A DNA stretch of 42,800 nucleotides from a virus (IMGVR_UViG_3300045988_042917:1-42800), one strand, 5' to 3'; numbered from the stretch's first letter, positions 12,620 through 31,032 are shown. Numbers and translations: made by a program. The notes: generated from the sequence alone by a model not told the origin.

Positions 12620-12879
12620 TTATCACGCTTCGGCTTATCGTACTCCATAGCCTGCCTGCTGTCGCTTACTCCGGCGGTCGTCGGATCTGTGACTACGCCG
12701 AGAATGGTAAGCACCGCGAACAGCGCGTTTACAACGGCCAGCAGCTTGTCTCCCAGCGCGTCAAGCTTGAGATCGATGCCGAACACCGCCGCCACTACCT
12801 GAACAAGCAGCAGCACCGCCGGAACGAGCGCGAGCCAAAAGGTTTTGTTTTTAAGTCTTACAGTCCAGTTGATTTTCAT
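12616..12879 (-). CDS. Holin of the phi-LC3 / Phage_holin_1 type
   Basis: MKINWTVRLKNKTFWLALVPAVLLLVQVVAAVFGI...LTILGVVTDPTTAGVSDS is the characteristic LC3-family sequence pattern. Confidence 0.85.
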   Translation of the reverse strand: MKINWTVRLKNKTFWLALVPAVLLLVQVVAAVFGIDLKLDALGDKLLAVVNALFAVLTILGVVTDPTTAGVSDSRQAMEYDKPKRDK

Positions 12880-12893
12880 AAATGTGCCTCCTG

Positions 12894-13127
12894 TTAATGA
12901 TGATGATTTTTCATGTCGTCCTCAAGGTCTGCTATCCGGTGATTTGCCACCTTGAGCTGTTCCTCTACTACAGGCATACGCTTTGCAAAGTTGTTATGCT
13001 CCCTGACCTCTCGTGTCAGCTCGTTCACCTTTGTTTCCATTACCGCCTGTGATTTGCTGTTGCTGATAAGTACGCCGACAAGCGTTAAAACACCCGTTAT
13101 GATAGCGACTATTATGCTCTCTGCCAT
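12894..13127 (-). CDS. Lysis-cassette membrane protein with an N-terminal TM helix and a coiled coil
   Basis: MAESIIVAIITGVLTLVGVLISN is followed by a heptad-rich segment, and the gene lies between the endolysin and holin genes. The topology is opposite to XhlA, so it is not assigned to that family. Confidence 0.6.
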   Translation of the reverse strand: MAESIIVAIITGVLTLVGVLISNSKSQAVMETKVNELTREVREHNNFAKRMPVVEEQLKVANHRIADLEDDMKNHHH

Positions 13128-13130
13128 ACT

Positions 13131-13841
13131 TTATTTCTCCAACATCGTTTCAATCATTCTTTTGTTATATATCGTCACCCTGAGCATATCCTCCGTCAGG
13201 TCGATCACGCCGTTGCCCTTGCCCTTGATTATGCCGTCCTGCATAAGCTGCCTGACGGTATCGCGGTAAAAGCCCTCCGGCACATCCTCTATCGTTTTCC
13301 ATCTTTCCATTTCTTCATCCTCGCTTTCTGCTGTATATTTCGGCCTGCCGAAGCCGTAGACCGTGCTGCCGAGATACCGGGTAACGCGCTGCACGGCGTT
13401 GCCGTAGTTGCCCTCTATGGTAACGAACGTGTTGCCGCTTACGCTTTCGACAATGCCCGTGTGGCATGGCAGCCCGTCGCGGCTGTCGCGCTGAAAATAC
13501 TGATCGCCGACCTGCGGCTTGGTGAAAAGTCTCGCCTGTGCCGCGTAATACTTCGCCCAGCTCACGCAGCTTGCGCCGTATGGCCCGGTAAGGCACAGAA
13601 CATCCTTTGCCTCGCTCCCGGCAATGCGCCAGAAGCACCACGCTACAAAGCTTGTGCACCATTCATAGCCGTTCTTCGGCGTGTTCCAGAATTTCGCCTT
13701 ATCAAGCTCGGCCTGAAACATCGTGAAGTTGCCTCGTCCGACGTTGTCCTCAAAGCTGTATAAGTCCTTGTCCGATGCCTTTTCCTTATAGCCTATGTAC
13801 TTTGCTGCAAGTGTGAGCACCTGTTTCGGGGTAATGTTCAT
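13131..13841 (-). CDS. Endolysin: an N-terminal CHAP / NlpC-P60-like amidase-peptidase domain and a C-terminal putative wall-binding segment
   Basis: The catalytic pattern is GYEWCTSFVAWCFWRI ... CHTGIVESV ... TIEGNYGN. The ATG at 13841 is preferred (AAAGGACGG upstream). The gene is adjacent to the holin. Confidence 0.8.
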   Translation of the reverse strand: MNITPKQVLTLAAKYIGYKEKASDKDLYSFEDNVGRGNFTMFQAELDKAKFWNTPKNGYEWCTSFVAWCFWRIAGSEAKDVLCLTGPYGASCVSWAKYYAAQARLFTKPQVGDQYFQRDSRDGLPCHTGIVESVSGNTFVTIEGNYGNAVQRVTRYLGSTVYGFGRPKYTAESEDEEMERWKTIEDVPEGFYRDTVRQLMQDGIIKGKGNGVIDLTEDMLRVTIYNKRMIETMLEK

Positions 13842-14083
13842 GGTTGAAAAATCACCGTCCTTTATCATCCCGGTGGGCATTTTTTATTTTACCCATCTCG
13901 CGCCCTACGAGATGTTCTTCAATTTGTGGCGGTTGTAAATCTTCAAGGATAGCTATTCTTTTTTGGGGCTTGTGCTGTCTATCTAAACTGAGCCGCCGCA
14001 GTTTTCTTTTTTCAAGCCGCCTATTTATAAGTCCCCGAACGGCAGGGGGCAGTATTGCAAACGGCATTAATGCCGGTCACAAG

Positions 14084-14885: not shown

Positions 14886-16226
14886 CTACTGCGGTCTATA
14901 TACCATACGTACATAGGCTGTTGTTGAGCTTGTACCACTTTCAAAGAAATCTCCAATGCAGAAAAGGCCGTCAGCCCCTCCCCCATGATAGGTATTAAAC
15001 ATTGGGTACGTCGTATAGGACGGGTTTTTTGGACGATTTATAGCATCACACATATAGGTGCTCTCACTGCCCTGGGCTGTGTTACCATTGTTTTCGGGAA
15101 GCATAATCCAAGGCTTTTCGGGGTCTAAACCGACTTTAACAATATATTTCGAGCCGATACCAGTCGGTATGTCATATGTCAGAGTGTATGTAAACGATGC
15201 GTAGTCGTTGTATTTAGTCGGCGTCGTGTTTATTACATACTGTCTCGCGTTCAGGTGAGTTAAGACGCCTGTAATCTGGTACAACAGCCCGCCCCACAGG
15301 TCCTCTATCCCGCGCCAAACAACGCTGACTTGCCCGTCCGTGCCTGCCGGGATGCCTGTAAGCCCCGGTACTGAGTCGCAGCCGCCGGTGTCTGGTATGT
15401 TATACGTGTCTACAACGCCGCGACCGATTACACTTTGAACATCGTTGTTAGCAAATTCGACCAGAATTAACATCTGCAACGCTGAAAGTGCTGCCAAATC
15501 AAACAGCGACCAGCCAGAGCCTCGCGCGGTTGCTGCTTTATAGAACTCCGGATTGTCTACTCCACCACTCGTGCTTGTAGGTCTGGAAGTCGCGCTCTTA
15601 GAGACATAGCTGTGTGTAGTATTTGACGCGAAAGGTGGGTAAGCTTGTATATAGAAACAATCCGTTGTCTTCCCAGAGATGGTGAAAGTAGGATGTACCT
15701 CAAAGTTTTCAACCGCCTCGTCCGCAATTTTAATGTATTCAATATTGCCCTCCCGGTATCGCCGATACCAGAACTTTGGAATTTTGACCATTACGTCGCC
15801 CGTTGACAAGGTCTGTCGGGCGATACCATTCCAAGGGTAACAGTCATCGAAATCGCTCGAACCAGCTACCGTTCCTTTAGATGCCGTTGCCGTCATGCCT
15901 ACTGCATCATCAGTTCTTGCCCATGCCGGGGACGAGTTCGTAATATCGCGACTAATACCAAATATTCGCAAGATATGCAGCTTTACACTTTTCACCTCTT
16001 TGTCTGCGGTAATAACTACAGTGTCCGAAGTTGTCTTTGCGCCCCTGGTTGCTCTTACAGTCCATGTTCCAGCACGATGAACCTTAAATGAATAGTTGCC
16101 ACTGGTGTCGGGGGCAGTATACACAGTGCCGTCAAGTTCGCATGTGCATGTTGCGCCTTTAGTATAGGTCACCTGAATTATCGCAGCAAACGATGAGCCG
16201 CCGCCTGCGTGATTGATAAGAGGCAT
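14886..16226 (-). CDS. Tail fibre / receptor-binding protein with a C-type-lectin / FGE-sulfatase-like region
   Basis: The ATG at 16226 is preceded by AAGGAGGG and overlaps the upstream stop (TAATG). FEVHPTF...SGWSLFDLAALSALQMLILVEFANNDVQSVIGRG matches a pattern seen in phage fibre lectin-fold domains. The 97 extra N-terminal residues of the track ORF are rejected. Confidence 0.6.
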   Translation of the reverse strand: MPLINHAGGGSSFAAIIQVTYTKGATCTCELDGTVYTAPDTSGNYSFKVHRAGTWTVRATRGAKTTSDTVVITADKEVKSVKLHILRIFGISRDITNSSPAWARTDDAVGMTATASKGTVAGSSDFDDCYPWNGIARQTLSTGDVMVKIPKFWYRRYREGNIEYIKIADEAVENFEVHPTFTISGKTTDCFYIQAYPPFASNTTHSYVSKSATSRPTSTSGGVDNPEFYKAATARGSGWSLFDLAALSALQMLILVEFANNDVQSVIGRGVVDTYNIPDTGGCDSVPGLTGIPAGTDGQVSVVWRGIEDLWGGLLYQITGVLTHLNARQYVINTTPTKYNDYASFTYTLTYDIPTGIGSKYIVKVGLDPEKPWIMLPENNGNTAQGSESTYMCDAINRPKNPSYTTYPMFNTYHGGGADGLFCIGDFFESGTSSTTAYVRMVYRPQ

Positions 16227-17734
16227 TACAAATCCCTCCTTATAATAATGGTTACGGGGATGTCTACAGTCGGCACATCTCCAAGCGCGACGAGCTGAAT
16301 GCTCCCTGTCGCCTGTGTGCCGCCGACGATCATAGCGCCCGACAGCGCCTCCAGCTGCGCCTGTGTTATCCCGCTGTTTTCGCGCGGCAGAAGCTCGACC
16401 GCCGATGTCGCCGTAATGTTCGCGTCGCTGACGGTGTATTTCTTCGCCGTACTCCAGCTCGACGCATACAGCGTGGTGTTCACTTTCGTCGACCGCCCGG
16501 CGGAATACACCTCCCACGTATACCCCGTAGCCGCCGCCGCTGTGCAGTGATAAACAAGCTTTGCCGCCGTGTCGATGTACTCCTGCCCGACAACACCGAC
16601 GGTCGATGTCGTCGGCGGCGTGGATGCGATGATGGTCTGAGGTAGATCATCAAGCGCCGTCTTTACGCCTCCCGAAGTAACCGGGTTTGTGCTGCCTGCC
16701 GTGGGTGCTGTGTCGAATGTCAAAGCGTTCTGCTTGCCGTTCCACGCCGTCCTCTCTGCGGCGGTAATGTGCATGACGGTGTTTTCCGCGTGGGTATTCA
16801 GATTGCCCTGCACGGTCTGTGCCGCGCCCTGTGCGTCCGCTCCGACCATTGCGGCGGTGTAGTCGCCCTGCTTCGGAACAACCGCGCCGCCGCGCCCGTT
16901 GAAGCTCGTAACGCCGCCGCCTGCCGCGCCCTGAGCCGCTTTAGCCCAGTACTTTGCGTTGTCTGTGTCCTCACCCTCGCGCGTTCCTGTGCCGCCGACC
17001 GCCCAGCTCTCGGATAATTTGCCGTTTGCCGCCGCCGATGCCGCTGCCGTTTTTGCTCCGGCCTCGTATTCTGCCGACGCATCCTCGGATAAAGCCGCCG
17101 CCGATGCAGAGCTTGCCGCCGCTGATGCCGAGCCGGAAGCCGATGTTGCCGCGCTTTCTGCCGCCGACTGTGCGCTCTCCGCTTTGCCTTGAGCTGTCTC
17201 GGCCTTGCTCTGCGCCGTTTCCGCCTTGCTCTGTGCAGTCTCGGCCTTGGCCTGTGCCGCCGCCGCTGCCGCCTGTGCGTCCTCAGCCTTGCCCTGAGCC
17301 ACTTCCGCAGCGCCCTGCGCATTCTTTGCCGCCGTTGCCGACTGCGCCGCAGCAGACTGCACCTGCGCCCATATGGGCAGTGTGCCGGTCGATACGTCCT
17401 CATAGCCCTCATAGCCCTTGCGTATCTTGCCGACCGTCGCCCACACCGTGGGTATCGCAACGACGTTTGCGTTGTCCGCGCCGTAAATGCCGACCATAAG
17501 TATCTCGTCGCTTTTTGCAAGGCACTCCTGCGGTATGGAGCAGACATTGTTTTCCCAGTACGAGTCGAGCACGACCTTTGTAACGTCGCCTGCCGTGAAT
17601 ATCGCGGTTCTGCTTATTCCCGAATGCCAATCGGCTGAAAACTCGAATTTTATCTTTGCATTTATCATGCCGCTGGTTAGGGTTTCGTTTTCCGTCACCG
17701 TTGCCAGTGCTTTGCCGATCATGATTGTTGTCAA
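16226..17734 (-). CDS. Tail fibre with an Ala-rich heptad coiled coil (AETAQSK repeats)
   Basis: A TTG at 17734 lies 9 nt after AAGGAGG; the alternative start is ATG 17722. A 21-bp periodic DNA repeat lies at about 17165-17275. KYWA..A and TSGGVKTALD motifs are typical of fibres. Confidence 0.7.
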   Translation of the reverse strand: MTTIMIGKALATVTENETLTSGMINAKIKFEFSADWHSGISRTAIFTAGDVTKVVLDSYWENNVCSIPQECLAKSDEILMVGIYGADNANVVAIPTVWATVGKIRKGYEGYEDVSTGTLPIWAQVQSAAAQSATAAKNAQGAAEVAQGKAEDAQAAAAAAQAKAETAQSKAETAQSKAETAQGKAESAQSAAESAATSASGSASAAASSASAAALSEDASAEYEAGAKTAAASAAANGKLSESWAVGGTGTREGEDTDNAKYWAKAAQGAAGGGVTSFNGRGGAVVPKQGDYTAAMVGADAQGAAQTVQGNLNTHAENTVMHITAAERTAWNGKQNALTFDTAPTAGSTNPVTSGGVKTALDDLPQTIIASTPPTTSTVGVVGQEYIDTAAKLVYHCTAAAATGYTWEVYSAGRSTKVNTTLYASSWSTAKKYTVSDANITATSAVELLPRENSGITQAQLEALSGAMIVGGTQATGSIQLVALGDVPTVDIPVTIIIRRDL

Positions 17735-17817
17735 AAGGCTTTTCCTCCTTTTTTGCTTCTTGATTTCAGCATAACAAAAGGAGGCAGGGCTTATTAAGCC
17801 CCACCTCCGCATGTTTT

Positions 17818-20800
17818 TTAGTTTTCTTTGTCGGGATTGTAATATTCCCGTGCGTGGTCGATTATAGTCTGCATCGGGTTTGCGCTCTTGTATGCCGCCA
17901 TCTCCCATTTTGCAAGCGAATAGTCGTTGTTGACCTCGTACTTTGCAATATGATCGGCGTAGGAATAGACATATTTGAGCATGTACGCCTTTTCGGGGTC
18001 TGCCGCGCCGGAATATGCCGCGCTGTTTATAACGCCCTGCGCAAGCTCGTATGAAGTCTGGCCCTTCGTCGTCGCGTATTTTACATACTCGTCGGCTGTC
18101 AGGTACTCGCCGTTTATCTTGGTGTTCGTCTTTGCACGGCTGGGATATACGCTCGTTTCGCCGAGATCGTAAAGCCGTTCGAGCTCTCCGTCTATCTCCG
18201 TCGGGCGCTCCTTCTTGACGTATGCGGGATTTACAAAGTTGTTGAGCATTCTTTCAAAGAGGTTGCCGGTCTCCTCCGTGCGCCCCCATGCGTCGATGTA
18301 CGGTATCTGGCTGAAATCGTAAAACGGTATCTTGTTTGCGATCTTGCCCCACATGTATTGCAGCTCAGAGCCGACTTTGCTGTTTCGGTCAATGTATGTC
18401 GTCTCGCGCTGAGCTTCCTCAAATGAGCGTTCAGCCTGTCCGAACAGCGTCGGGAAATACTGCGATATGTAGTTTGCCGCCATGCTCGATACGATTTTGA
18501 AAGTACCCTGTCCCTGCTTGATGTACGCGAGGTTATCGAAAAGATCGTTTACGCTTTGCAGCATGGACATTTCAAACATCGGTGTGCTCAGGCTCATGAC
18601 CGAGCTCATGAGGTTCTGCAAAAATCCCTTGTCCTCGTTTTTGCTGCTCAGGGAGTTGAACAGCTCAACGCCGACGAACAGCGGCATACTTTCCGGCGCG
18701 AGCCAGTCAAGCGTAATGCTCATCCCGCCTATGCTCAAGGCGTAATTCTGCTTGCCGCTCAGCTCGTCAAAATAGTTTTGCTTTTCATCATCGTCATCAC
18801 CGCCGCTCAGAACGCCCCATGAGGCCAAAAGTATACCCAGCCCCATAAGTGCCGAGCCCGTAAGCCCTGCCGAAATATCGTCTATAAACTCTGCCGGGCT
18901 CATGCCGTTTTCAATGTCTCCGTTTACATATGCCTTGACCTTTTTGGTGTCCAGCGCAAGGGACTTTATAAGCCCGACCGGCGAGTATTCAACAGCCCGG
19001 GCTAATATGTTGGCCGGGGTTTTCTTAAACGGAAGAACGCCCTCAATGAGCACAGCAGCGACTTTGTTATCCACCTTGCCGAGCCTGCTGACCTGAGCGG
19101 AAAACCAGTTGGTATCGCGGTAAGTGGCTTTCTGCGCTTCCTTGATGGCAATGGTCTGTGCCTTGATTATCGTCTCCTCCGGCACTTTGCCCGTGTTGAG
19201 CTGTTCAGCGCTTATGCCGTTTGCCTTGTACCACTTGGCAAGCGCGTTTGCGTATGCAGGCTTGCAGAACCATGCATCCTCCGCGTCGAGCGCTGCCGAG
19301 TTGCCCTTGCGTGCCGCCTCAAGTATCTTGGTCTTATATATCGTCCTGTGCTTGTCGATGCCCTGAAATGTATCGACATACTTGCCGCCCGAAAGTATGA
19401 CCTCCTGCACAGCCTCATAGTCCGACATTGCGTATTTGACGAGCGCCGCATCCGCCGCATTACTTGAGTTAAGTATTGCCTTGCTTCGCTCTATGCCGCC
19501 GTTTATCTTCGCGTCGGCTATATTCTCAAGGCCGTATGCTATCGTGTTCTTGACGGCTCTGACGGGCACGAAAAATGCGTTGCCTACGATGTTTCGGACA
19601 TGTGTTCTCGGATTGCCCAACATAGCGAGATAGCGGAAGTTATTGAGCTTTTCGTACCACGTCGCATCTATCTGCCGTGCTACGCTCTGCTCTATGTTCG
19701 CCCATGCGGTTTTTATGCCATCCTCGTCGCCCTGTCTGAGCGCCTTGGCATACTCATCGTAAAGGATTTTGTCAACATGTATATCCGCCTTGTTGTCCTT
19801 GTACCGCTCGTTGAGGTCTTCCTCGATGTTCTCTATCGACTTTGCCGCGAGGTACAGTCTGCATTCGGGCGAAAGCTTGTTGAGAATGCGCATAGCCTGC
19901 AAGGACTGCGCCGTGTTCGTGGAGTTTTTGACCATGAGCGATGCAATGTCCATCGCCGTTGCGTAATCTCCGCTGTTGACGGCATTGTTGTAAAGGGCAA
20001 TGCCCATAACGGTATTGTCCTTCGATACTCTGCCGCTGTTTATCTCGGCCTTGTAGTTTGCAAGCGCCTGTTCCCAGCCGTCGATTTCGATAGTACGGTT
20101 AGCCTTTTTAAGCGCTTCCTCGTCGGAGTATGCAATGTGCGAGAACTTACCCAGTGCCGCATCCTCTCTCAGCGCGTCGGAGAACTCAGCCGGTGTCATG
20201 CCGCTGTTGGCTATGGTGGAAACATGCTTGCTCGTGAGCTTGCCGTTCAGATCTTCCTTTGGTATCTCCTGCGGCGCTCTGCGCTGCTGTTCGGCGAGAT
20301 TTGCCTCCTGCTCCTTGCTTATCGGGTGCAGTGCGCTGTCGCCCTCGCCCTGAGCCTCCGTTACCCAGCGTTCGCCCACGGTTTCCTCTCCCGTGAAGTT
20401 TGCGGAAGCTGCGCCCATGCCCTCCGGCAGGTCGTTGCCCAACCGCTCATCAACTCTCGTGAGAATGTTTTGAAGGGCTTTCATTTTGGCGTAGCTTTCG
20501 AGTTTCCTGTGCTCACGCGCATATTGATTGCTGAGTACCGTAAAGCGGTTTTTCGCCTTGGTGGTAGTGTCGTAGTCTGCGCCGCTATCCTCCGCCTCTG
20601 TAAGCGTCTGCTGTGCCGCACTGAGCTTTTCGCGTATGTCCTCGACCTTGCTGTACTGCTTCTTATAGTCGCGTATAAGGCCGCGCTCGTTCTCGTTTGC
20701 GGCATCCTCCGCCGTAGCCTGCGCAAGCTTCCTCTCATTCTGCCGCCTCAGCTCGTTAAGTCTCTCCGGCTCGCGGGAAAATTGCTTGTTGACATTTTTG

Positions 20801-23800
20801 GAAGAACTGCGTATACTATTTTCAGACGCAGAGCTGATGGCCGGTGCGCTCCCTCCCAGCGATTGACTACCGCTGGTGACAGTCCCGACGGTGGTAGGCT
20901 CTGCGTTAGTCATTTCCGGCAGCGCAAAAGCCGTGCCCTCCGGGGTCAGGATACGGTGTACCTTGTAGCGATTGCCCTTAGTTTTCATCACAACCGCCGC
21001 CATATTTCCACGTTTTCCGTTCAGCTCCACCGGGGCTGCGATAGTCAGTGTTTCATAGTCTCTCCCCTTATGGTTGCCGTGCCCACTGATCTCAATGCCG
21101 CGTTTCAACACCATCGGCAGTGCCTGATATGCCGCCGCCTCCGCATCTGTCTGAATGTAATTTAAGCTTCGATTCAGCATCTTCTCGTCGAAATCAATCA
21201 CGCCGATATCAGGGTTATCCACGCGATAGCCTGTTTTTTTCAGGCTGTTTACAATTTTCTTTCGGAACGCTCCGGTACTCATGCCTCTCCAACCGTTGTC
21301 ACGAATTGTGGCGACGGCTTTCATGCTGTTCAATTCTCCCTGATGTTCCCGCAGTTGAGTCTTAACGCTGTCCTGCTCACTCTGACTCATGGCATAGCTG
21401 CTATCCTCCGCAAACACAGTGTTCTCGTCACCGTAGTCTGGCGGTACCATCTTCCGTGTCCAGTCAGACATGCTTCTGCGGTTCGCCGCGTCTCTGGCCT
21501 CGATCTCACCCGCTGTGTTGTAGTAAAGCTCACTCGGTACACTGTTGCCCGGACGGTTCATCTGCGTGTAGTAGTTGTTCAGCAGGTCGTAGTATTCGTT
21601 GATTTTCCCGTCAAGTCCCCGCCGCTCTGCTTCCTCCCACAGCCGGTCATATTCTGTGAGGTCGTCGTCCAGTTCTCCGGCTTGTTCTATTTTGTCCTTC
21701 AGCGCCAGCGCTTCCTCGTTCGCCTTACCCAGCTGGAATTGAATCAGTTTTTCCCTTGCATCTTGGAATCCCTTGCTTTGAATCTTGTCCCCGCTGGTCA
21801 GCTTTTCTTCCCAGTATTCCCGGTTGCTCCCTCGCGTGAAGCCCTCCGCGTTCTGCATGGCGTGCTGAATCTCGTGCACCAGCGTGCTCTCCGGCGCGTT
21901 GCGCAGCTCATTGCTTAGGGTGATAAGGTTTTGAGACGGGCTGTAGCTGCCCATGGTGTTCTTCGGCATGTCAGCAAACTCCACCTTCGTCCGCCGCAGC
22001 TGCGGATACGCCCGGAATAATGCCTCATGGTCGAGAATGTCCTCCAGCGTTGCGTTGCCTCTGTCTACGCGCTCGCTCAGGCGGCCATACTCCCGCCCCC
22101 ACGTTTCATCCATCTGCCGCAGTCGGGTCTCTTCCTCCGCTGTCACCTCGCCGGTCATCCACTTGCGCATCAGCTTCTGATACTCCGCATAGTCAGGATG
22201 ACCCCTGCTAAAGGCAGCGTCGCCGCCGCGATGGTAGGTCATCTCGCTGTCGTCGATCTCAAACCGCCACTTGCCGTCCATGCCCTTGAACCAGCCGGTA
22301 GCCTTGCGGATGCTCTTCATGTCAGCACCTTGCGTCTGCATTTGTTTAGCTCTTTCAAGCTGCTCAAGGTCTGCTGTCCGCGCATGTTTGCCAGCATAGC
22401 TATACTTCACCCCGCCCTTTTTCGGCGGTGCTCTGCCCTTGCTGCCGGTTCTCTCGGCGGCGTATTTGCGCACGGTGTCCTGTGCTTTCCCGTAGCTTTC
22501 GCTGTTTAAGTCCGTGCCCTCGAAGATGTTCATTCTGCCCAGCGCATCGCAGCATATCTCTTCAAAAGCCTCTTCGGCGCTGAGAATGCCGCCGTATTCG
22601 CTGCTGTATATCTCGACAAGCTCGTTTAATTCGTCCTCAGTGAAGTCGTCAAGCAGCATTTCTTTTGCCTCGTTCAAGCTCAGATCGCCGTTTTCAAACG
22701 CCGCATGCCCCATCTCGTGGCGCATTATCTGCTCTGCGGTGTAGTCGGGATGGTCTGCTCTCACCATGACGGTCTTTTTTGCCGTGTCAACAGCGCCCCT
22801 GAACTCGCCGCCTGCATAGCGGATATTACCGCCCACAAAATATGTGACCTTATAGCCGTAGCTCTCCGCGAGCTTGCGGCCTTTTTTCATGTCCTCGGTG
22901 TCCTCTGCGGCATAATAAACGCCCTTCTGCTGCTTGCCCTTGTAGCTTACTTTTTCGCCAGCTTTGATTTGAGCCGCGCCAACGCCGCCTTGTTCTTTTT
23001 GACTTCCTCCGGCGACATTTTCTCCTGTGCCTGTTTCCACTCCGCGTATCTGTACTTCGGTATTCTGACCGTTAATCCGCTCCTCGACGTTGTGTATACG
23101 TACTCCATTATCGTTTACCTCCTGTGTGTTATTGATAGTGACCGGCGCTGCTGTTTCGGTGCTCATTACGCTGTCCGCGCCCATCTGATACGCAATGTTC
23201 GCCTGTGCCGTGCTGAGTACGGGCACTTTGCCGAGCGCGGCCTTGTCCGTGCCCTGCTGCCCCATCTGATAAACAGCATTGAACGCCGTTTCAAACGCCT
23301 GCGGCGCTGTCGGATTGAGATTGTATGTGCGCTCGACCACTTCCGGCGCAACTTCGTACTGCCGCGCCATGCTGTTTATGACAATGGGCTTGCTGTATTC
23401 GTTCGCTGCTGTTCTGCGGATATTATCAACAACGCCGTTACCGGCCATCTGATTTATAGCATCCTGCACAGCGGCATTGCCTATCGCCGCATTTTGCGTA
23501 CTGCTGAGCTTTTGACCGCTCGCTGCAAGCGCTGCTGCCTGTGCCGTGTTATCATCGACGAGTACACCCGACTGTGCAAGCATATCCCGCACCGTCTGTG
23601 TGTCCGTTCCGATAGTCATTAGCCGTTCAAGGTTCTCAGTTTCCTTGTCGCTGAGATTGCGCTTGCCGCGCTGTGTGCTCTGATCAATGATGCTTTTATA
23701 CTTTTCTGCCGTAAGCTGCGCGTCGCCGCCCTGCTCCGTGGCAAGACCGGCATTGACTAACTGGCGCTGATATTCCTCATACGCTCTCTGCTGCGCGTTC

Positions 23801-25110
23801 TCAGCTCTGTACTGGCCGCTGACAACGTTTGTACCGGCACCCGCAAGGCCGAGCGCACCGCCTATGATGTAGTCCTCAAGCATCTGCTGAGTGTCATAAT
23901 CATCGGCAAGGTCTGACCAGTCACCTTTACCATCGTCAAGCTTTAGTATGCGATCTGCGATAGGGTTGAGGATATCCGAGAGCACTTCCTCCATGCCCTC
24001 TTCATTTGCACCGACTAAGACCTTTAATGCCGTGCGGCCTTTGTCTGTCTTTGCAAGGCGGTTTACAAGGCTGTTGACAAGGCTCTCGTTTCTGATAATG
24101 CCCTTGCCGTATGCGACCTTGGAGACCGAACCGAAGAGCTTTTCCGTAAGCACTTCAATAGCCGCGCTCTTTAAACCGGATATCTGCTGCTCACCCTCGC
24201 TCAGGCCGCGCTGCTGTGCGTCCAGTGAGGCAGAACCGTATGCGCGTCCTGCCATTGCTGCAATACCTGTGCCGGGTGCAACAGCGTTAAGCAGCGCGTC
24301 ACCGGCAAACTGTGCGCCTGCTATGCCGAAGTCAACAACGCCCTGGCCGAATTTGCCCAAGCCCTGCTTTGCCTCCTGCTCGTACTCATACGCGCGCTTT
24401 GAACTTTCCTCGGCGCTTTCCAGCAGCTTTTGCTTGAAATCTCCGGCCCAGCCGTCATTAAAGCTTTTTATCTTCTCCTGCTCCGCCTTGCGCTGCGCCT
24501 GTCCCGGCCTGACCTGCCTGCCCTCTTTTTTCGCAGTCTTGGCCTCGTTTATTGCCGCTCGTGCGCTCTCACCCATTGAAAGATTGCCGGTCGGGGACAT
24601 AACATCCGCGCCAAGCTTCTTATAGGCCGCACCCGATGAAGAAAGTGCGCTTTTTAAAATCGCCTCGCCCTTGAAATTGCCCGTGGGCGTAGACGTAAAA
24701 GCCCTTTGCGCCGATGCTCTGCCGAGCGGTCTGCCGGTTTCGGCAGGCTCAAAGCGGCTGCGAGGTGTCGCCGTGCCCTTTACCGGCCTGTTCGCCGCCG
24801 CGCCTGTTTTTCCGTCGCCGTATGCTTTCGTGTATACATACGCCGGGTTATTGGCCATAAGCGCATCTGCGCTAAGTTTATTTCTGCTGCCGAGATCGTT
24901 TCGTATCTCATCGATCTGAGAAAGTACGTTCGATTTGGAATTGCTTGCTTCTATTGGCTTTTTACCGGCAGAGCCGGAGGCGCTGTTTGTTTTTGCGGTT
25001 TTATAACCAGCGGCTATCAAATTGGCTTTTTCGGCATAATCTCTCGCTGCGTTTTGCTGCCGCCTTTTTACTTCGGCCTTTATTTCTTCCCTGTTGATTC
25101 TTTTAGCCAT
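17818..25110 (-). CDS. Giant (2430 aa) polyvalent-type virion / ejection protein with two HExxH zincin-like motifs and a C-terminal TM segment
   Basis: It is a single uninterrupted ORF. HEMGH lies at aa 798-802 (nt 22705-22719) and HEIQH at aa 1079-1083 (nt 21862-21876). There is a Gly-rich hydrophobic region near the N-terminus and the TM segment LTGSALMGLGILLASWGVLSGGDDDD. It occupies the place where a tape measure or internal proteins would sit. Confidence 0.75.
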   Translation of the reverse strand: MAKRINREEIKAEVKRRQQNAARDYAEKANLIAAGYKTAKTNSASGSAGKKPIEASNSKSNVLSQIDEIRNDLGSRNKLSADALMANNPAYVYTKAYGDGKTGAAANRPVKGTATPRSRFEPAETGRPLGRASAQRAFTSTPTGNFKGEAILKSALSSSGAAYKKLGADVMSPTGNLSMGESARAAINEAKTAKKEGRQVRPGQAQRKAEQEKIKSFNDGWAGDFKQKLLESAEESSKRAYEYEQEAKQGLGKFGQGVVDFGIAGAQFAGDALLNAVAPGTGIAAMAGRAYGSASLDAQQRGLSEGEQQISGLKSAAIEVLTEKLFGSVSKVAYGKGIIRNESLVNSLVNRLAKTDKGRTALKVLVGANEEGMEEVLSDILNPIADRILKLDDGKGDWSDLADDYDTQQMLEDYIIGGALGLAGAGTNVVSGQYRAENAQQRAYEEYQRQLVNAGLATEQGGDAQLTAEKYKSIIDQSTQRGKRNLSDKETENLERLMTIGTDTQTVRDMLAQSGVLVDDNTAQAAALAASGQKLSSTQNAAIGNAAVQDAINQMAGNGVVDNIRRTAANEYSKPIVINSMARQYEVAPEVVERTYNLNPTAPQAFETAFNAVYQMGQQGTDKAALGKVPVLSTAQANIAYQMGADSVMSTETAAPVTINNTQEVNDNGVRIHNVEERINGQNTEVQIRGVETGTGENVAGGSQKEQGGVGAAQIKAGEKVSYKGKQQKGVYYAAEDTEDMKKGRKLAESYGYKVTYFVGGNIRYAGGEFRGAVDTAKKTVMVRADHPDYTAEQIMRHEMGHAAFENGDLSLNEAKEMLLDDFTEDELNELVEIYSSEYGGILSAEEAFEEICCDALGRMNIFEGTDLNSESYGKAQDTVRKYAAERTGSKGRAPPKKGGVKYSYAGKHARTADLEQLERAKQMQTQGADMKSIRKATGWFKGMDGKWRFEIDDSEMTYHRGGDAAFSRGHPDYAEYQKLMRKWMTGEVTAEEETRLRQMDETWGREYGRLSERVDRGNATLEDILDHEALFRAYPQLRRTKVEFADMPKNTMGSYSPSQNLITLSNELRNAPESTLVHEIQHAMQNAEGFTRGSNREYWEEKLTSGDKIQSKGFQDAREKLIQFQLGKANEEALALKDKIEQAGELDDDLTEYDRLWEEAERRGLDGKINEYYDLLNNYYTQMNRPGNSVPSELYYNTAGEIEARDAANRRSMSDWTRKMVPPDYGDENTVFAEDSSYAMSQSEQDSVKTQLREHQGELNSMKAVATIRDNGWRGMSTGAFRKKIVNSLKKTGYRVDNPDIGVIDFDEKMLNRSLNYIQTDAEAAAYQALPMVLKRGIEISGHGNHKGRDYETLTIAAPVELNGKRGNMAAVVMKTKGNRYKVHRILTPEGTAFALPEMTNAEPTTVGTVTSGSQSLGGSAPAISSASENSIRSSSKNVNKQFSREPERLNELRRQNERKLAQATAEDAANENERGLIRDYKKQYSKVEDIREKLSAAQQTLTEAEDSGADYDTTTKAKNRFTVLSNQYAREHRKLESYAKMKALQNILTRVDERLGNDLPEGMGAASANFTGEETVGERWVTEAQGEGDSALHPISKEQEANLAEQQRRAPQEIPKEDLNGKLTSKHVSTIANSGMTPAEFSDALREDAALGKFSHIAYSDEEALKKANRTIEIDGWEQALANYKAEINSGRVSKDNTVMGIALYNNAVNSGDYATAMDIASLMVKNSTNTAQSLQAMRILNKLSPECRLYLAAKSIENIEEDLNERYKDNKADIHVDKILYDEYAKALRQGDEDGIKTAWANIEQSVARQIDATWYEKLNNFRYLAMLGNPRTHVRNIVGNAFFVPVRAVKNTIAYGLENIADAKINGGIERSKAILNSSNAADAALVKYAMSDYEAVQEVILSGGKYVDTFQGIDKHRTIYKTKILEAARKGNSAALDAEDAWFCKPAYANALAKWYKANGISAEQLNTGKVPEETIIKAQTIAIKEAQKATYRDTNWFSAQVSRLGKVDNKVAAVLIEGVLPFKKTPANILARAVEYSPVGLIKSLALDTKKVKAYVNGDIENGMSPAEFIDDISAGLTGSALMGLGILLASWGVLSGGDDDDEKQNYFDELSGKQNYALSIGGMSITLDWLAPESMPLFVGVELFNSLSSKNEDKGFLQNLMSSVMSLSTPMFEMSMLQSVNDLFDNLAYIKQGQGTFKIVSSMAANYISQYFPTLFGQAERSFEEAQRETTYIDRNSKVGSELQYMWGKIANKIPFYDFSQIPYIDAWGRTEETGNLFERMLNNFVNPAYVKKERPTEIDGELERLYDLGETSVYPSRAKTNTKINGEYLTADEYVKYATTKGQTSYELAQGVINSAAYSGAADPEKAYMLKYVYSYADHIAKYEVNNDYSLAKWEMAAYKSANPMQTIIDHAREYYNPDKEN

Positions 25111-25125: not shown

Positions 25126-26691
25126 TTACCCTCTGCCCATCTGCGAATAAAGCTTGCGCTTGAGAATATTAATATCATCGTTGGTAAGGTCTGATTCCTT
25201 CTCCCATGCGTCCAGCAAACTGTCAACGCTCGTATATTGATTACCGTTCCACTTGAAAACGCCCTCGTCGGGTTGATAACTGAGCTGCCGCACTTTCTTG
25301 ACCGAAATACTTCCGTCCTTATTGACCTTATAATCCTTATCGCTCGGATATGTTCTGCTGCTTCCACCGCCGCCTGATCTGCCGCCGCTTCGTGCCGCCG
25401 TCTGAGCCGCCGCCTGCTGCTGATAGTAGCTCATGAGGGAGTTGATATATGACGGGTCATAGCCCGATGCACTTATAAGCACCTGAGAGGGCGTGCCGCC
25501 GGCCGCAATGATTGCGTCAATCTGGCTCTGTGCAAGCTTCTGGGTGTCCTGTCGCCTGTTGTAATTGCTCTCATTTAGCTGCATGTCCTGATTCCACTTG
25601 TCAATGAGTTTGTTGTATTCCTGCTGGTCAAGCGTGTTGTTCATGTTCCAGTTGTTGAGGAACCGCTCATAGTCCGTTGCATCCGCGCCGGAAACGAGGC
25701 CATACAGGTTGCCGAGGTTGCTTATGTTATCCTGCTGCTGCTGATACGCCATGCTTGCCGCCGCTGCCGCTGCATTATACTCTGCCTGAGAATTGGCAAC
25801 GTCCTGTTGATAGCGCTGGAAATCAACCTGATCGCGGTCAATATACATGTTGTACAAATTCCGCATATCGTTGCCCTCGTTTGTATACTGCGTGTATGCT
25901 CTGTCGTAGAATTCGGGCAACATCTCCGTTACCTTTTGCAGATACGCATTGTACATCTGCTGTCCTACGGCCTGTGAATACGTCGAACCATAGCCGCCTG
26001 TGAGAGCCGCCGCCTGTCCCATGGTATCCTCCATTGCAAGCTGTCCCTGCTTGGTGTATAGGTCTTTATACTGCTGATACAGCGGGTCAAGCTCTTCGTT
26101 GTAACTAAATTCCTCGCGGTTGAGCAGCTTGTTCAAAAGCTCGTCTATCTGCGCGTCATACTGCGGATTATACGTCGGCGCCGAATACCCCGGCATGGAA
26201 ATAGTCGGAGCATTAGTTATTGCATCGGTAATTGAACCAAGGATTTTGTCCAAATCTTCGGAATACTTGGAGTTGTAATCCGTCGATGGTGTGCGCCGCT
26301 CAGTTTCGGTGAAAGAGCCGTATTTATTGGTGAGCGGCAAATTCATGTTGTTCGTGTTGATTTTTTCGTTTCTGGCCTGCTCTGTTTGCCTTGCTCCGGT
26401 CATGTCTCCGGCCGCTGCCTTTGCCGCAGCGGTAAGGCCTAAGTCTGCGGCGCTGGTGTAAGTAATTCCGTTACCGTAAGTTACATTAGACGCGCCTGCA
26501 TAAGGGTTTTCACCGACTGCGATGTTTAGCCCTTCGCCGTTTATTTTTGCTTTTCGCCTGTTGTACGCCTCATCATACGCCGCCCAATCTCCCTTGGCCT
26601 CTGCTTCGTTCATTTTCGCTTTATAGTTAACGCCGTTTTCGTATGTAATTACAGTGCCGTTTTCATTTGTCCATGATTTCAATTTAGCCAT
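25126..26691 (-). CDS. Virion (possibly internal / ejection) protein, Q/N/Y-rich (521 aa)
   Basis: It contains the motif DPLYQQYKDLYTKQGQLAMEDTMGQAAALTGGYGSTYSQAVGQQMY and a GGRSGGGGSS linker. It is assigned by position between the tail knob candidate and the giant protein. Confidence 0.55.
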   Translation of the reverse strand: MAKLKSWTNENGTVITYENGVNYKAKMNEAEAKGDWAAYDEAYNRRKAKINGEGLNIAVGENPYAGASNVTYGNGITYTSAADLGLTAAAKAAAGDMTGARQTEQARNEKINTNNMNLPLTNKYGSFTETERRTPSTDYNSKYSEDLDKILGSITDAITNAPTISMPGYSAPTYNPQYDAQIDELLNKLLNREEFSYNEELDPLYQQYKDLYTKQGQLAMEDTMGQAAALTGGYGSTYSQAVGQQMYNAYLQKVTEMLPEFYDRAYTQYTNEGNDMRNLYNMYIDRDQVDFQRYQQDVANSQAEYNAAAAAASMAYQQQQDNISNLGNLYGLVSGADATDYERFLNNWNMNNTLDQQEYNKLIDKWNQDMQLNESNYNRRQDTQKLAQSQIDAIIAAGGTPSQVLISASGYDPSYINSLMSYYQQQAAAQTAARSGGRSGGGGSSRTYPSDKDYKVNKDGSISVKKVRQLSYQPDEGVFKWNGNQYTSVDSLLDAWEKESDLTNDDINILKRKLYSQMGRG

Positions 26692-26702: not shown

Positions 26703-27146
26703 TTAATCCTGTGCTTTTCCGACTGCTATATACATCACCGTGCAGCTCCCGGCCTCGTCCGCTTTGGGGAGCGAGGCGGTAAAGCCGGTTTTGCTTACGT
26801 TGTCGGATTTTATCGTTATATTGCGGTCTGAAAACGGCTGGGAGCAAATAACAACGGGCTTGTCTGCAAACTTTGCCTTGCTTCCAAAGCTCACACTCAC
26901 CGTCGTGTCGCTCTCCGCGCCGTATGTCATTTGGAATGTGCCGTAAGCAACGTTGCTGTCCGATGAGACCTCGGCAACAACAACGCTGCTGCTTGTGCTC
27001 GTTCGGCTGCTTGTATCGCTTGCCGCGCCCTCAACGTTTAGCCACACTGAAAGGCTCTCGGCAAGTTGCGCCGTATATCGGTGCAGCTGAGTTACCTTTT
27101 CCTCGGATGTGCCGAATATCCGAGGCGGCTGAGGTATCACTATCAT
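26703..27146 (-). CDS. Tail protein with a C-terminal H-type-lectin-like domain (putative)
   Basis: VSVSFGSKAKFADKPVVICSQ...ITIKSDNVSKTGFTASL...VMYIAVGKA resembles the H_lectin pattern (V.F...F...P.V...vt..GF...w.A.G). Confidence 0.4.
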   Translation of the reverse strand: MIVIPQPPRIFGTSEEKVTQLHRYTAQLAESLSVWLNVEGAASDTSSRTSTSSSVVVAEVSSDSNVAYGTFQMTYGAESDTTVSVSFGSKAKFADKPVVICSQPFSDRNITIKSDNVSKTGFTASLPKADEAGSCTVMYIAVGKAQD

Positions 27147-29119
27147 TTGATATCCGTACCTCCCTCAAACTGCTTGCTAAAGCTGTAGAGCCGCACCGTG
27201 CCATGACCCGAGAGCTTTATTCTGAAATGGTCGCAGCGCTTAGGCTTGACGGGAACCATAAATGTCGTTGTGCCCTGTCCTTTTATGCGGCCTTGCTTTT
27301 CCCAAACGCCGGAGCTGTCATACTCAATGTAGATCATCATCTCCGAGCCTTTGGGCAGCATCATGCGCAGATTAAAGCGGCTAATGTACTTCTGCCCGGT
27401 GTAGTTGTAGCCCTGCAAGCCGGTTATGGCTTCCCACTCAAACGCGGCCTCCTCATTCCCGGTTTTTGTGTAATCGGATATAAGGTTTATTGCGTATCCG
27501 CTGCTGTCCTCGGTAACAAAGAATGTTTCATTGTTTATCGAGAAGAATGCAAGCGCGTGTTTTTCATCTTCCTTGTGCCACAGGCCGCGCTTTGTGTCGT
27601 ACACAAACAGCGACCATTTGCCGCTTGTATCTTTGAGGGATAGATAATACTTGCCGTTCGCACTGCCGCCCTCGGCCGCAACGTAATATACATTCCCGAG
27701 AGGCGCGCCGATATCATAGGCCTGTGTGCCGTCAAACGCCATCACGCCGCCGCGAGACTTGTAATAGCAAACATCATCTATCACAGTGACCGAGCCGCTA
27801 CAGCCTGTCTGAACGCCCTGAACGGTCTTATCGATGATTTGATGTGCGCCGGAGCTGGATATATAGACCTTGTGGTAACAGTTTTCCTTGAAGAAAATCA
27901 GGTTACCGCCGATGTTCGCCGAACCTGTGAACGCGCCCGGAGTACCTATAGAAGCCCGGTATGCATCGGTACTAACGCCCTTGTATGTTGACCATCGGGT
28001 TTCGTCGCCGAGCTTTGAGGCATATATCTCATTTACATTTGTTTTCTCGGCGTCTTCGGATGCTTCATAGTTATATCTGCATCCCCAAATGCGGTTTTGC
28101 GCCTGTACAACAAAGTCAAGGTCCGGAGCATCCCTATAAAGCTTTATGCTGCCTGCTGTCTGGTTAAAGTCTCCGGTTACGATATCAACGAATACATATA
28201 TAAGCTCGACCGTGTATGACTTTGTGCCATCGGCCGCCGTTGTCTCGTTGGTCTTATTGATAACTCGCTTTGTCGGGGTATGCTGTCCCTCAAATTTTGC
28301 TGAGTTATCTCCCTCCGAGAACGTCGCGTCGGTAAAAGATATCTCTATCGTGTCACCGCTATCGATGCTGATTTTGTTTATTGCCTTTTCGGTCATCGTA
28401 CCCATCGGCAAAACGATACGTGCCTTTATGTCGCTTGTCTTAGCCCATGATCCGGCAATGTATTTTTTCCACACCGCGCCGGTGTCGGTGCTCGACGTGT
28501 CAAGCCACAAGTCACCCGTTTTAGGACTGGACGGCGCTGTTGCACTCTTGGTAAAGGTCACCGCCTCGCCGTCTTCTGTGCAAGCCGTAAATTTTATCGG
28601 TGCGTCCGTCGAGGCCGTAGCCTCGATAGATTTGTACAGCTTTTCATACTCGTGGTTCTCCGTCGTATCCGTTGCCGTGCCGCTCTCGCTTCGAATACTC
28701 AGCTTATCGGGATAAATAACGAGCTTATTGGAGAAAAACATCATCTGCTTTGTGCTTTCCGATATGCTGATTGAGTTATCTGCCACACCGTCTACCGTTA
28801 ATAAAACCTTTTTGGATGTGGTATATGTACCGGTGCCGCGATAGATTTTGTAAATCCCGGCTCCGCTGTCGGCGGTCTTGCCGACAACGTAAAGGTTTGA
28901 GTCAACATCGGCGATCATGCCGTATATGGCGGTAAATTTCCCGGCAGCTATAATGCTCCTCGCGTCGCGATTACCCATGAGCGGGTAGTAGTCGCTTGTT
29001 AGGTTTTGCATATCGTAAAACTCGCCGTCGCCGATTTTGTAATTGTGGTTATAGCCGCCGAAGGTATCAACGACTGTCTCAATCGTGCTGCTTTCGGGGA
29101 TAGTTATATATGTCGGCAT
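27143..29119 (-). CDS. Large tail structural protein (658 aa), candidate tail knob or nozzle
   Basis: The assignment rests on position after the head-tail adaptor genes and on a beta-rich composition. No specific family was recognised. Confidence 0.45.
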   Translation of the reverse strand: MPTYITIPESSTIETVVDTFGGYNHNYKIGDGEFYDMQNLTSDYYPLMGNRDARSIIAAGKFTAIYGMIADVDSNLYVVGKTADSGAGIYKIYRGTGTYTTSKKVLLTVDGVADNSISISESTKQMMFFSNKLVIYPDKLSIRSESGTATDTTENHEYEKLYKSIEATASTDAPIKFTACTEDGEAVTFTKSATAPSSPKTGDLWLDTSSTDTGAVWKKYIAGSWAKTSDIKARIVLPMGTMTEKAINKISIDSGDTIEISFTDATFSEGDNSAKFEGQHTPTKRVINKTNETTAADGTKSYTVELIYVFVDIVTGDFNQTAGSIKLYRDAPDLDFVVQAQNRIWGCRYNYEASEDAEKTNVNEIYASKLGDETRWSTYKGVSTDAYRASIGTPGAFTGSANIGGNLIFFKENCYHKVYISSSGAHQIIDKTVQGVQTGCSGSVTVIDDVCYYKSRGGVMAFDGTQAYDIGAPLGNVYYVAAEGGSANGKYYLSLKDTSGKWSLFVYDTKRGLWHKEDEKHALAFFSINNETFFVTEDSSGYAINLISDYTKTGNEEAAFEWEAITGLQGYNYTGQKYISRFNLRMMLPKGSEMMIYIEYDSSGVWEKQGRIKGQGTTTFMVPVKPKRCDHFRIKLSGHGTVRLYSFSKQFEGGTDIK

Positions 29120-30987: not shown

Positions 30988-31032
30988 ATCGTTTCCTTTC
31001 ATGGTCATAGGCCACGCGGAAACGCTCAAGGC

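Follow-up and report, generated by a model that had tools for sequence, protein, structure and literature searches.

A giant polyvalent-type protein of a temperate gut phage: a conserved, probably ejection-related carrier around an exchangeable internal cassette

Among the genes of IMGVR_UViG_3300045988_042917, a 42,800-base viral DNA stretch analysed here at its full length (the window), one is large enough to raise the question of what such a protein is, how it is put together and at which step of infection it would act. This giant gene is an uninterrupted, ATG-started open reading frame (ORF) of 7293 nt on the minus strand (17818-25110) that encodes 2430 amino acids (aa) and takes up 17.0% of the window. 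A first-pass annotation, made from the sequence alone, had described it as a single-ORF, polyvalent-type protein with two HExxH motifs and with a transmembrane segment followed by DDDD, and had judged it a probable part of the ejection apparatus of a podovirus-like virion. Its basic description was borne out, as the ORF is unbroken, HEMGH lies at aa 798-802 (nt 22705-22719) and HEIQH at aa 1079-1083 (nt 21862-21876), in the contexts quoted earlier, and the hydrophobic segment and its DDDD are present (Table 1). We consider it probable that the protein is an encapsidated ejection protein of the polyvalent class, in which a gp16-like C-terminal domain and an N-terminal core form the carrier, while the middle is a string of effector modules exchangeable by recombination.

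The division into carrier and cassette emerges from comparison with relatives. A search of 5.8 billion proteins returned 802 homologues of the giant protein at E ≤ 1e-5, and all of the best 120 of these 802, here termed close homologues, span 2061-2857 aa; where their longest contig looks complete, it measures ~41-43 kb. When 119 homologues are mapped onto the query, aa ~1/140-900 are conserved at 66-97% identity and aa ~1430-2430 at ~97%, but aa ~905-1430 are common to only 5-8 of the 119. We therefore speak of aa 1-900, including the first HExxH, together with aa 1445-2430 as the carrier, and of aa ~900-1445 as the cassette. The segments that replace the cassette in sister phages fall into 32 clusters and carry ART-PolyVal, LPD3, PBECR3, PBECR5, MuF_C and methyltransferase domains as well as several families without a Pfam match, and these swaps occur between sister phages that are ~97% identical in the C-terminal (C) domain. 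Cassette-free homologues of 1455-1488 aa also exist, in which the N-terminal core (N core; query aa ~190-494, 37-57% identity) is fused straight to the C domain, and the middle region is therefore an insertion site.

Every boundary of the exchanged modules carries a short junction motif, [K/R/M/H/Q]-[F/Y/W]-S-[R/K/L/M]-[E/Q]-[P/A/V], as in KFSREPE, MYSREV, KFSMEAP and RYSREPE. The 120 close homologues contain 305 copies against 15.7 in shuffled sequences, and in the 19 proteins with positions listed the motif occurs only at module boundaries. Cutting at the motif resolves the close homologues into 193 modules, 18 families and about 35 architectures (for example A-B, A-J, A-I-G-B, D-F, D-B-F and C-B), with module families that are strikingly uniform in length (e.g. 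200-201, 230-236, 587, 185 or 533 aa). Compared with seven sister loci, the DNA of the window is homologous up to aa 901-903 and again from aa 1442-1445, exactly the two outer junctions, and the junction motif is where recombination between sister genomes has its breakpoints. The codons of the motif vary synonymously (TTT/TTC; TCC/TCG/TCT/TCA; CGC/CGA/CGG/CGT; GAG/GAA), so that it is conserved at the protein level, and a purely DNA-level recombination signal is not supported as its sole explanation. Three of the commonest module families, C (587 aa; P0032/P0033), A (200 aa; P0079) and I (154 aa; P0027), lack any Pfam match; they make up about 60 of the 193 modules and are uncharacterised candidate effectors.

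The identity of the constant C-terminal part is central to the proposed role of the protein. Models from Pfam, NCBIfam and PHROGs and the sequences in PDB give no match to aa 1450-2430, but the domain is widespread: a HMMER search of 1.84 billion cluster representatives (50% identity) recovered 7003 clusters at E ≤ 1e-3 and 3296 at E ≤ 1e-30. Among the C-domain proteins listed, 145 of 150 measure 1200-4250 aa, and the ~800-aa domain is usually C-terminal, with the near-invariant motifs AWRYLAMLGNPRTHxRN, EAQKATYRDTN, LPF(K/R)KTPANIL..EYSP.G, TLDWLAPE and IPYIDAWGR. An AlphaFold2 (AF2) model from a 50-sequence alignment is all-helical (predicted local distance difference test, pLDDT, 71; predicted template modelling score, pTM, 0.58). 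Foldseek matched it to 49 viral proteins in BFVD at E ≤ 1e-3, among them uncultured gut phage proteins named for their LPD3, ART-PolyVal, MuF_C or nuclease parts (TM score 0.65-0.76) and, more distantly, the internal virion proteins of the Synechococcus podophages S-CBP2 and S-CBP3 (E 1e-10 and 1e-9). A relaxed tblastn search with the C domain against 50,697 phage genomes matched 15 records, the best being Pelagibacter phage HTVC011P (2e-5), and all 12 matches with a functional annotation come from T7-like marine and related phages and bear the label 'internal virion protein (D)' or 'internal core protein'. With hhalign, the C-domain profile aligned with internal virion protein D (IVP-D) of HTVC011P over 336 columns (97.6%, E 2.7e-12) and with that of Desulfovibrio phage ProddE over 248 columns (92%, E 6.6e-7). 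The PF.(K/R)TPAN motif falls within the HTVC011P alignment, as does the hydrophobic segment of IVP-D, which aligns with the transmembrane-like segment of the query; the Gly positions of the query segment are invariant in 50 homologues. These profile comparisons make the C domain a distant homologue of 'internal virion protein D', the protein that occupies the gp16 position in marine and Desulfovibrio T7-like phages.

Gene order may point in the same direction. In HTVC011P and ProddE, IVP-D stands between IVP-B and IVP-C (or the proteins in their positions) on one side and the tail fibre on the other, while in the window the order of a 147-aa protein, a 521-aa protein, the giant protein and a fibre-like 560-aa protein parallels gp12 / gp13-14 / gp15 / gp16 / gp17. 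The view of a polyvalent protein belonging to a podovirus-like ejection apparatus is thus supported by the homology of the C domain to IVP-D and by the Foldseek matches to cyanophage internal virion proteins. The partnership with the Q/N-rich 521-aa protein, which had been part of the same proposal, rests on its position: neither the 147-aa nor the 521-aa protein is detectably homologous to a gp14 or gp15 analogue, and the latter shows no similarity to its 608-aa positional counterpart in HTVC011P.

In the N-terminal half of the carrier, the most widely conserved part is the N core, which is also present in the cassette-free homologues; a helical region is held by the carrier as well, in addition to the N core, zincin, spacer and C domain. 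The earlier mention of a Gly-rich hydrophobic N-terminal region holds in part, since a Gly-rich stretch is real at aa 250-450 (13.9% Gly, 12.9% Ala, 10.4% Leu), but it does not lie at the extreme N-terminus, where aa 1-250 are Ala/Lys/Ser-rich, and it is not transmembrane-like, with no 19-residue window reaching a Kyte-Doolittle value of 1.2. The first HExxH belongs to the constant carrier. At least one HExxH is found in all 120 close homologues and the ADHP...HEMGH context in 111 of them. The AF2 model of this first zincin (zincin-1) has an alpha/beta fold with a HEMGH helix (pLDDT 75-89), and in 27 distant homologues (28-64% identity, plus one close at 96%) the HExxH and a (W)EE..CD..MN(I/V)F segment are kept. 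Many distant homologues have R(A/G)PP after zincin-1 and, beyond a short gap, K-phi-S-R-(E/D). A Foldseek search of PDB with the N region gave no significant match; the zincins anthrax LF, IrrE and abylysin appeared only at E > 1.

The cassette of this phage consists of an LPD23 domain, a second zincin (zincin-2) and an LPD3-like domain (Table 1), delimited by the junctions VKYSYAG (aa 901-907), whose residues double as the first of the LPD23 model, a degenerate TVFAEDSSYAMSQ (aa 1232-1246) and QFSREPE (aa 1443-1449). Zincin-2 matches the putative metallopeptidase family DUF6782 at aa 1014-1094 (E 1.4e-8, 34.7 bits against a Pfam cut-off of 27), with weak, below-threshold Pfam matches to Peptidase_M91 and SprT-like. 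Assignment of the LPD3-like domain is by homology. On the query itself Pfam LPD3 is not reported at E ≤ 1, but aa 1281-1400 are 42% identical to the corresponding segment of P0019, a module not itself scanned by Pfam, related sister modules match Pfam LPD3 (P0010 at 1.2e-9, P0014 at 2e-7), and the homologues P0002, P0004 and P0006 (77-94% identity) have a precomputed PF18798 (LPD3) match. The small effector or nuclease-like segment earlier suspected at aa ~1300-1400 is thus LPD3-like, a family without known nuclease activity. PDB sequence searches with the whole protein, zincin-1 or the unit of LPD23 and zincin-2 gave chance matches only (E > 0.2). The two predicted zincins, which had been listed together as parts of one protein and are indeed both present, are not equivalent: the first belongs to the conserved carrier and the second to the swappable cassette.

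These features place the protein in the class of polyvalent proteins, for which head packaging and processing by a metallopeptidase have been predicted (Iyer, Burroughs, Anand, de Souza & Aravind 2017, PMC5512222). As in the phage-type members described there, several effector or LPD domains share one giant polypeptide in a late or virion gene setting, and the domains themselves recur: LPD23, a zincin-like metallopeptidase and LPD3 here, and ART-PolyVal, PBECR and MuF_C in sister proteins (PMC5512222). At least two distinct effector or LPD domains were found (LPD23, the DUF6782 zincin, the LPD3-like segment and the other zincin at aa 720-890), a zincin-like metallopeptidase is represented by two HExxH domains whose catalysis is putative, and the phage has portal-terminase packaging and late genes (TerL, P22-like portal, major capsid protein (MCP), tail protein, endolysin, integrase). 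With LPD23 and DUF6782 above Pfam thresholds, the LPD3-like segment, and ART-PolyVal, PBECR3/5 and MuF_C in sisters, the first-pass classification as polyvalent-type stands. Extensive mosaicism of polyvalent proteins is also on record, with about 50 combinations for H. pylori jhp1044 (PMC5512222). The differences concern the carrier and the architecture: known carriers are MuF, portal, DarA and N4 vRNAP, whereas here an N core and a ~880-aa C domain without a Pfam model take this part, the cassette is internal with conserved carrier on both sides, and an explicit conserved junction motif, which co-occurs with the carrier zincin, delimits the modules (PMC5512222, in whose text the words 'linker' and 'transmembrane' are absent).

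The closest parallel to the cassette is found in F116-like (Hollowayvirus) Pseudomonas podophages, whose 3782-aa 'PLxRFG domain-containing protein' (Baskent_P6 XPB66950.1) has LPD23, zincin and LPD3 in the same order. The two corresponding units are 29% (the zincin-2 unit) and 24% identical to the query (E 7e-21 and 1e-4), the latter value being that of the alignment of aa 1281-1400 with the LPD3 region. The likeness extends to 'VQYSF' before LPD23 and 'QFSR' after LPD3 and to the setting, a temperate phage in which the F116-like gene closes the structural genes ahead of those for lysis. However, the F116-like protein belongs to a phage of a Gram-negative host and ends in the tail-700 domain of NCBIfam (aa 3100-3767), and an assignment of the C domain to this tail-700/PLxRFG family (NF032893, 681 positions) was rejected, with no match at E ≤ 1 and an hhalign result of 0.1% (E 0.41, 27 columns).

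Other relatives share the carrier or the general plan. IVP-D proteins of Autographiviridae (HTVC011P, ProddE, Roseobacter CRP phages and Synechococcus S-CBP2/3) are homologous to the C domain over 250-340 columns, with a PF(K/R)(K/T)PAN motif, a hydrophobic segment, a fold match in Foldseek and a gene position between two small or medium proteins and the fibre gene, and T7 gp16 (annotated 'with endolysin domain') likewise joins an enzymatic N part to an ejection C part. The giant protein differs in being twice as long, in its polyvalent cassette and in lacking a lytic transglycosylase domain; no lysozyme or transglycosylase family was found in it with Pfam, PHROGs or NCBIfam. Given its Gram-positive host, temperate lifestyle and P22-like portal, the phage is not an autographivirus. 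By published description, it can also be likened to phi24B gp47 (2811 aa; LPD5, LPD1, LPD38, MuF-C), a giant polyvalent protein of a temperate podovirus with a different domain set, which was detected by mass spectrometry in virions, is invisible in cryo-EM maps and was proposed to be an encapsidated ejection protein (bioRxiv 10.64898/2026.04.10.717836). BLAST-level similarity to phi24B is absent, as the 45 phage records matched (Pseudomonas, Caudoviricetes, Bacteriophage, Bacillus, Xanthomonas) include no Escherichia phage. The 8-kb ORFs at the 3′ end of the Clostridium clostridioforme LM41 prophages phi1 and phi4, LPD3-like polyvalent proteins mentioned without domain, carrier or cassette analysis, are similar by description in being giant, in occupying about 20% of the genome and in residing in Clostridia prophages (PMC11318856).

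With these comparisons, a course of events can be outlined for the preferred reading. The giant protein would be produced late and enclosed in the head, and at infection it would pass through portal and tail, with the C domain inserting in the membrane as part of a DNA conduit. Within the first minutes the cassette enzymes would then target host proteins, RNA or DNA, probably to counter host defences. More speculatively, the carrier zincin would cut the phi-S-R-E junctions and free the modules, and conservation of the motif would also keep recombinant joints in frame.

In polymorphic toxins (CdiA, Rhs, MuF-toxins), a short motif such as VENN borders the constant delivery part and the exchangeable modules, and variants differ among near-identical strains; there, swapping is confined to the C-terminal tip, and secretion systems deliver the protein. 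By analogy, the phage protein would extend this principle, in that up to four internal modules stand in series, each with its junction motif. What bears on cleavage is the company that the motif keeps. Co-occurrence was counted among representatives at ≤50% identity: in the 23 with the carrier zincin, the looser [x][phi]SR[ED] was observed 31 times against 4.6 +/- 2.2 in shuffled sequences (maximum 10), while in the 124 without it the count was also 31 against 22.6 +/- 5 (maximum 31). Plain 'SRE' behaves alike, with 36 observed against a shuffled mean of 15.5 in the former group and 61 against 69 in the latter. As the looser motif is enriched only where the carrier zincin is present, motif and protease travel together. 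This association tentatively suggests that the carrier zincin cleaves at the junction motifs, which we regard as possible but far from assured. The fuller proposal, that zincin and phi-S-R-E junctions form a self-processing polyprotein system in an ejection protein of a double-stranded DNA phage, whose effector string passes through the tail, is cut at each junction to give the host a strain-specific mixture of enzymes and exchanges modules in frame by recombination, is one that we hold to be doubtful.

The phage also encodes a Prp-like peptidase (Table 1), and the L27-like Prp site, [hydrophobic]-Q-[hydrophobic]-F↓A/S, was sought throughout the window. On the coding (minus) strand it is confined to the N-termini of the scaffold (WLQLF↓AD, in MRNKFSWLQLF↓ADGT) and of the MCP (WIQIF↓AD, in MTNFNWIQIF↓ADAG after an internal Met at about nt 30987); the one other match in the window lies in a 125-aa plus-strand ORF at ~40640. 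This pattern suggests N-terminal trimming of scaffold and MCP, of the 80alpha type, by the predicted phage-encoded Prp-like enzyme. As the giant protein has no Q-x-F↓A site, the Prp-like capsid protease is an unlikely junction protease. The end of zincin-1 (22441-22560, minus strand, aa ~850-890) carries a conserved ..CD..G.MN(I/V)F-(A/E/S) segment, which in several distant homologues reads MNIFAD or MNVFAE and so resembles the Prp site Q-I/L-F↓A-D; the likeness could be a coincidence or a second processing site.

A number of observations weigh against an encapsidated, self-processing ejection protein. The AF2 model of the N core (aa 190-440) is unusable (pLDDT 30-40), Foldseek of the C domain against PDB found only non-specific alpha-solenoids (best E 0.11, TM score ~0.1), and similarity of the C domain to T7 gp16 itself was not detectable, with an hhalign result of 0.3% (E 0.2, 29 columns) and no T7 core protein among the PDB Foldseek matches. 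A Prp-type motif is missing from the giant protein except for a weak 'TVFAED' at aa 1232. The correlation of motif and zincin may partly reflect shared ancestry, and the strict junction motif is lineage-specific: as a feature of the whole C-domain superfamily it was rejected, with 20 copies against 10.8 expected in 150 distant representatives. The virion is known here from genes alone, and its probably short-tailed morphology is deduced from missing genes. Finally, carrier homologues occur outside structural modules, so the carrier is not tied to podovirus structural modules. Two cassette-free 1488-aa homologues (L030 4322-8788, L031 2036-6502) follow a CHAP endolysin and a holin and adjoin an integrase at the end of pig- and human-gut prophages rather than in the structural module, and a 1395-aa homologue (L033) ends a myovirus-like prophage with Baseplate_J and a diversity-generating retroelement (DGR), parts of which (bAvd and two RVT_1 reverse transcriptases) lie nearby at 4044-6012 and 20114-21217. 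Homologues of 1165-1267 aa (L032 10001-13804, L034 10001-13498) sit in chromosomal-looking loci with no phage genes within 10 kb, in the order MMPL transporter, 526-aa unknown, homologue and Metallophos/SbcCD-like; these may be domesticated copies or remnants.

Such settings are what one would expect if the protein were never packaged but expressed late and anchored in the membrane of the producing or lysogenic cell, where it would, for example, exclude superinfecting phages, act as a toxin between phages or between bacteria, or assist lysis: the place after endolysin and holin and beside the integrase is a typical moron position, the chromosomal copies lack phage neighbours, and a single transmembrane-like segment is present. 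We find this explanation unlikely, because the gene lies within the structural operon here and in sister phages, the C domain is homologous to T7-like internal virion proteins, neither Pfam nor NCBIfam reveals a signal peptide or secretion-system domain, and even in L030 and L031 the gene has kept the orientation of the late genes. Another location would be the outside of the tail, as a hub, needle or fibre-associated wall-degrading protein whose zincins are peptidoglycan peptidases. Podoviruses of Gram-positive hosts require tail enzymes that degrade the wall, and the giant gene has fibre and tail genes as neighbours. A wall-degrading role was also speculated for the gp47 peptidase by the phi24B authors (bioRxiv 10.64898/2026.04.10.717836). 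This placement is nonetheless improbable in our estimate, as no peptidoglycan hydrolase family matched the protein, its zincin matches are to the protein-protease families DUF6782, M91 and SprT-like, and the ART domains, RNase-like PBECR domains and methyltransferase of sisters need cytoplasmic targets, while the C domain is all-helical, has a membrane segment and internal virion protein homologues, and no beta-helix or fibre folds are present.

The great length, largely helical character and Gly-rich hydrophobic stretches of the protein, the Myoviridae or Siphoviridae sp. labels of some BFVD relatives and the homologue in a myovirus-like prophage would also suit a conventional tape measure protein in a long-tailed phage with an overlooked tube gene, an alternative named in the first-pass annotation. 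It was checked and appears very remote: no tape measure family is matched, PHROGs and Pfam detect no tube, sheath, tape-measure, terminator, chaperone, Dit or Tal family among the window proteins, as the description of the tail module had anticipated, the portal is P22-like, and the L033 homologue stands after baseplate, fibre and DGR genes rather than in the tape measure position. Moreover, lengths of 2061-2857 aa among sister phages with near-identical structural genes are incompatible with a tail-length ruler. A false fusion of separate genes by assembly or sequencing error, the other refutation foreseen, has next to no probability. The same unbroken architecture is seen in more than 100 proteins from independent assemblies (Logan, NCBI), including a 43,170-bp NCBI contig, and because full-length homologues at 77-94% identity come from such assemblies, the ORF is not a false fusion; nothing was found in favour of an artefact. 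An encapsidated carrier with an exchangeable cassette thus remains the reading that we prefer.

Table 1. Features of the giant protein and of neighbouring genes in the window
Feature	Position (nt)	Strand	Evidence or remark
Whole giant gene	17818..25110	(-)	stop codon 17818-17820; polyvalent ejection-type protein (probable), 2430 aa
N core of carrier, Gly/Ala/Leu-rich, aa 190-494	23629..24543	(-)	BLAST to P0291 and others, 37-57% identity
Carrier zincin (zincin-1, predicted), aa 720-890	22441..22953	(-)	HEMGH, then conserved EE..CD..MNIF segment; PHROG 1233 at 5.5e-7
N-side junction GRAPPKKGG-VKYSYAG, aa 892-907	22390..22437	(-)	carrier end/cassette start; DNA homology to 7 sister phages ends aa 901-903
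LPD23 domain, aa 903-959	22234..22404	(-)	Pfam PF18838, E 3.1e-26, profile positions 1-57 of 58
Cassette zincin (zincin-2, predicted), HEIQH, aa 1014-1235	21406..22071	(-)	Pfam DUF6782; phrog_13543 at 4e-21
Degenerate internal junction TVFAEDSSYAMSQ, aa 1232-1246	21373..21417	(-)	between zincin-2 and LPD3; aligns with 'KFSKEASG' start of sister LPD3 modules
LPD3-like domain, aa 1281-1400	20911..21270	(-)	homology to LPD3-positive modules
C-side junction FSREPE, aa 1444-1449	20764..20781	(-)	preceded by low-complexity linker aa 1401-1443; sister DNA homology resumes aa 1442-1445
Charged helical spacer, aa 1450-1549	20464..20763	(-)	conserved in close lineage
C-terminal carrier domain, all-alpha, aa 1550-2430	17821..20463	(-)	~97% identical among sister phages
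Part aligned with HTVC011P internal virion protein D, aa 1936-2314	18169..19305	(-)	includes LPFKKTPANIL, aa 2026-2036
Transmembrane-like segment aa 2083-2101, DDDD aa 2105-2108	18787..18864	(-)	sequence; Kyte-Doolittle 1.69
TerL	34547-36013	(-)	
P22-like portal	32644-34575	(-)	
Prp-like peptidase	32303-32647	(-)	phrog_4478; Pfam Peptidase_Prp in sister locus L001; between portal and scaffold genes
Probable scaffold	31033-32046	(-)	
MCP	29836-31029	(-)	
658-aa protein	27143-29119	(-)	phrog_511 'internal virion protein', PHROG E 3.6e-57
147-aa protein, gp13/14-like position	26703-27146	(-)	position only
521-aa Q/N-rich protein, gp15-like position	25126-26691	(-)	upstream of giant gene; position only
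560-aa AQxKAE-repeat protein, probably fibre, gp17-like position	16226-17908	(-)	downstream of giant gene; sequence
Tail protein	14886-16517	(-)	phrog_5302
Endolysin	13131-13880	(-)	PHROG match
Small transmembrane-containing ORFs, probable holins	12616-13127		downstream of endolysin; sequence only
Integrase	7912-9123		

All structural genes of the window lie on the minus strand, and in sister phages the giant gene is likewise found inside the structural operon, between internal-virion-like and fibre genes. The phage is temperate judging by its predicted integrase and repressor-like regulator, and it also has Erf, NinB and Gam recombination genes; a sister element, with a CHAP endolysin and Phage_holin_1, is integrated in a 130-kb bacterial contig. 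The recombination set lies at 2348-4041 (minus strand) and comprises an Erf-like annealing protein, a NinB/Orf mediator and a Mu Gam-like end-protection protein; it could drive short-homology exchange of modules in the giant gene. Near-identical DNA is absent among GenBank phages, and the best cultured relative of the portal is that of Bacillus phage PK1 at 25% identity, so the phage has no cultured reference. The genomes recovered with sister phages are 'uncultured Clostridia bacterium' metagenome-assembled genomes only, GCA_958422105.1 being an example, and the lineage is one of ~42 kb temperate phages of gut Clostridia. Of the neighbouring proteins, the 658-aa one matched only unannotated faecal phage contigs by tblastn, and the 147-aa and 521-aa ones matched no family in PHROGs or Pfam, nor, for the 521-aa protein, in NCBIfam.

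Some gene starts and ORF calls call for comment. If begun at its first ATG, the 560-aa ORF would share 91 nt with the end of the giant gene, and a more plausible start is MIGKALATV at about nt 17722; its Ala/Gln-rich repeats of the AQ(G/S)KAE(T/S) type are typical of fibre shafts. The tail-protein ORF probably starts at MPLINHAGG and not at the listed GTG. Within the giant gene the plus strand has three long antisense ORFs, of 521 aa (19600-21165), 305 aa (22705-23622) and 225 aa (23948-24625), which are most likely compositional by-products, because the AT skew of the region is strong (-0.2 to -0.34); that the first has the length of the real 521-aa gene upstream is chance.

The polyvalent class is already known, and so are the cassette domains, which stand in the same order in F116-like phages. 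In the searchable literature, however, no paper brings 'internal virion protein' together with 'polyvalent protein', and we found there no description of the link between the C domain and gp16-position ejection proteins, of a two-sided carrier with an internal multi-module cassette, or of the junction motif and its co-occurrence with the carrier zincin. To our knowledge, almost no polyvalent protein has been studied experimentally. The present analysis contributes a candidate carrier, a ~800-aa domain found in more than 7000 protein clusters, without a Pfam, NCBIfam or PDB counterpart and tied to gp16-position ejection proteins, as well as a concrete cleavage and recombination motif, still putative, with a candidate protease. 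The about 35 cassette architectures in near-identical phages amount to a natural experiment in which effector function, such as counter-defence specificity, can be compared, and thousands of "hypothetical" giant proteins in gut Clostridia prophages could be labelled. If the self-processing proposal were true, these proteins would represent a general plug-and-play platform for effector delivery, shared by thousands of Firmicutes phages and never annotated.

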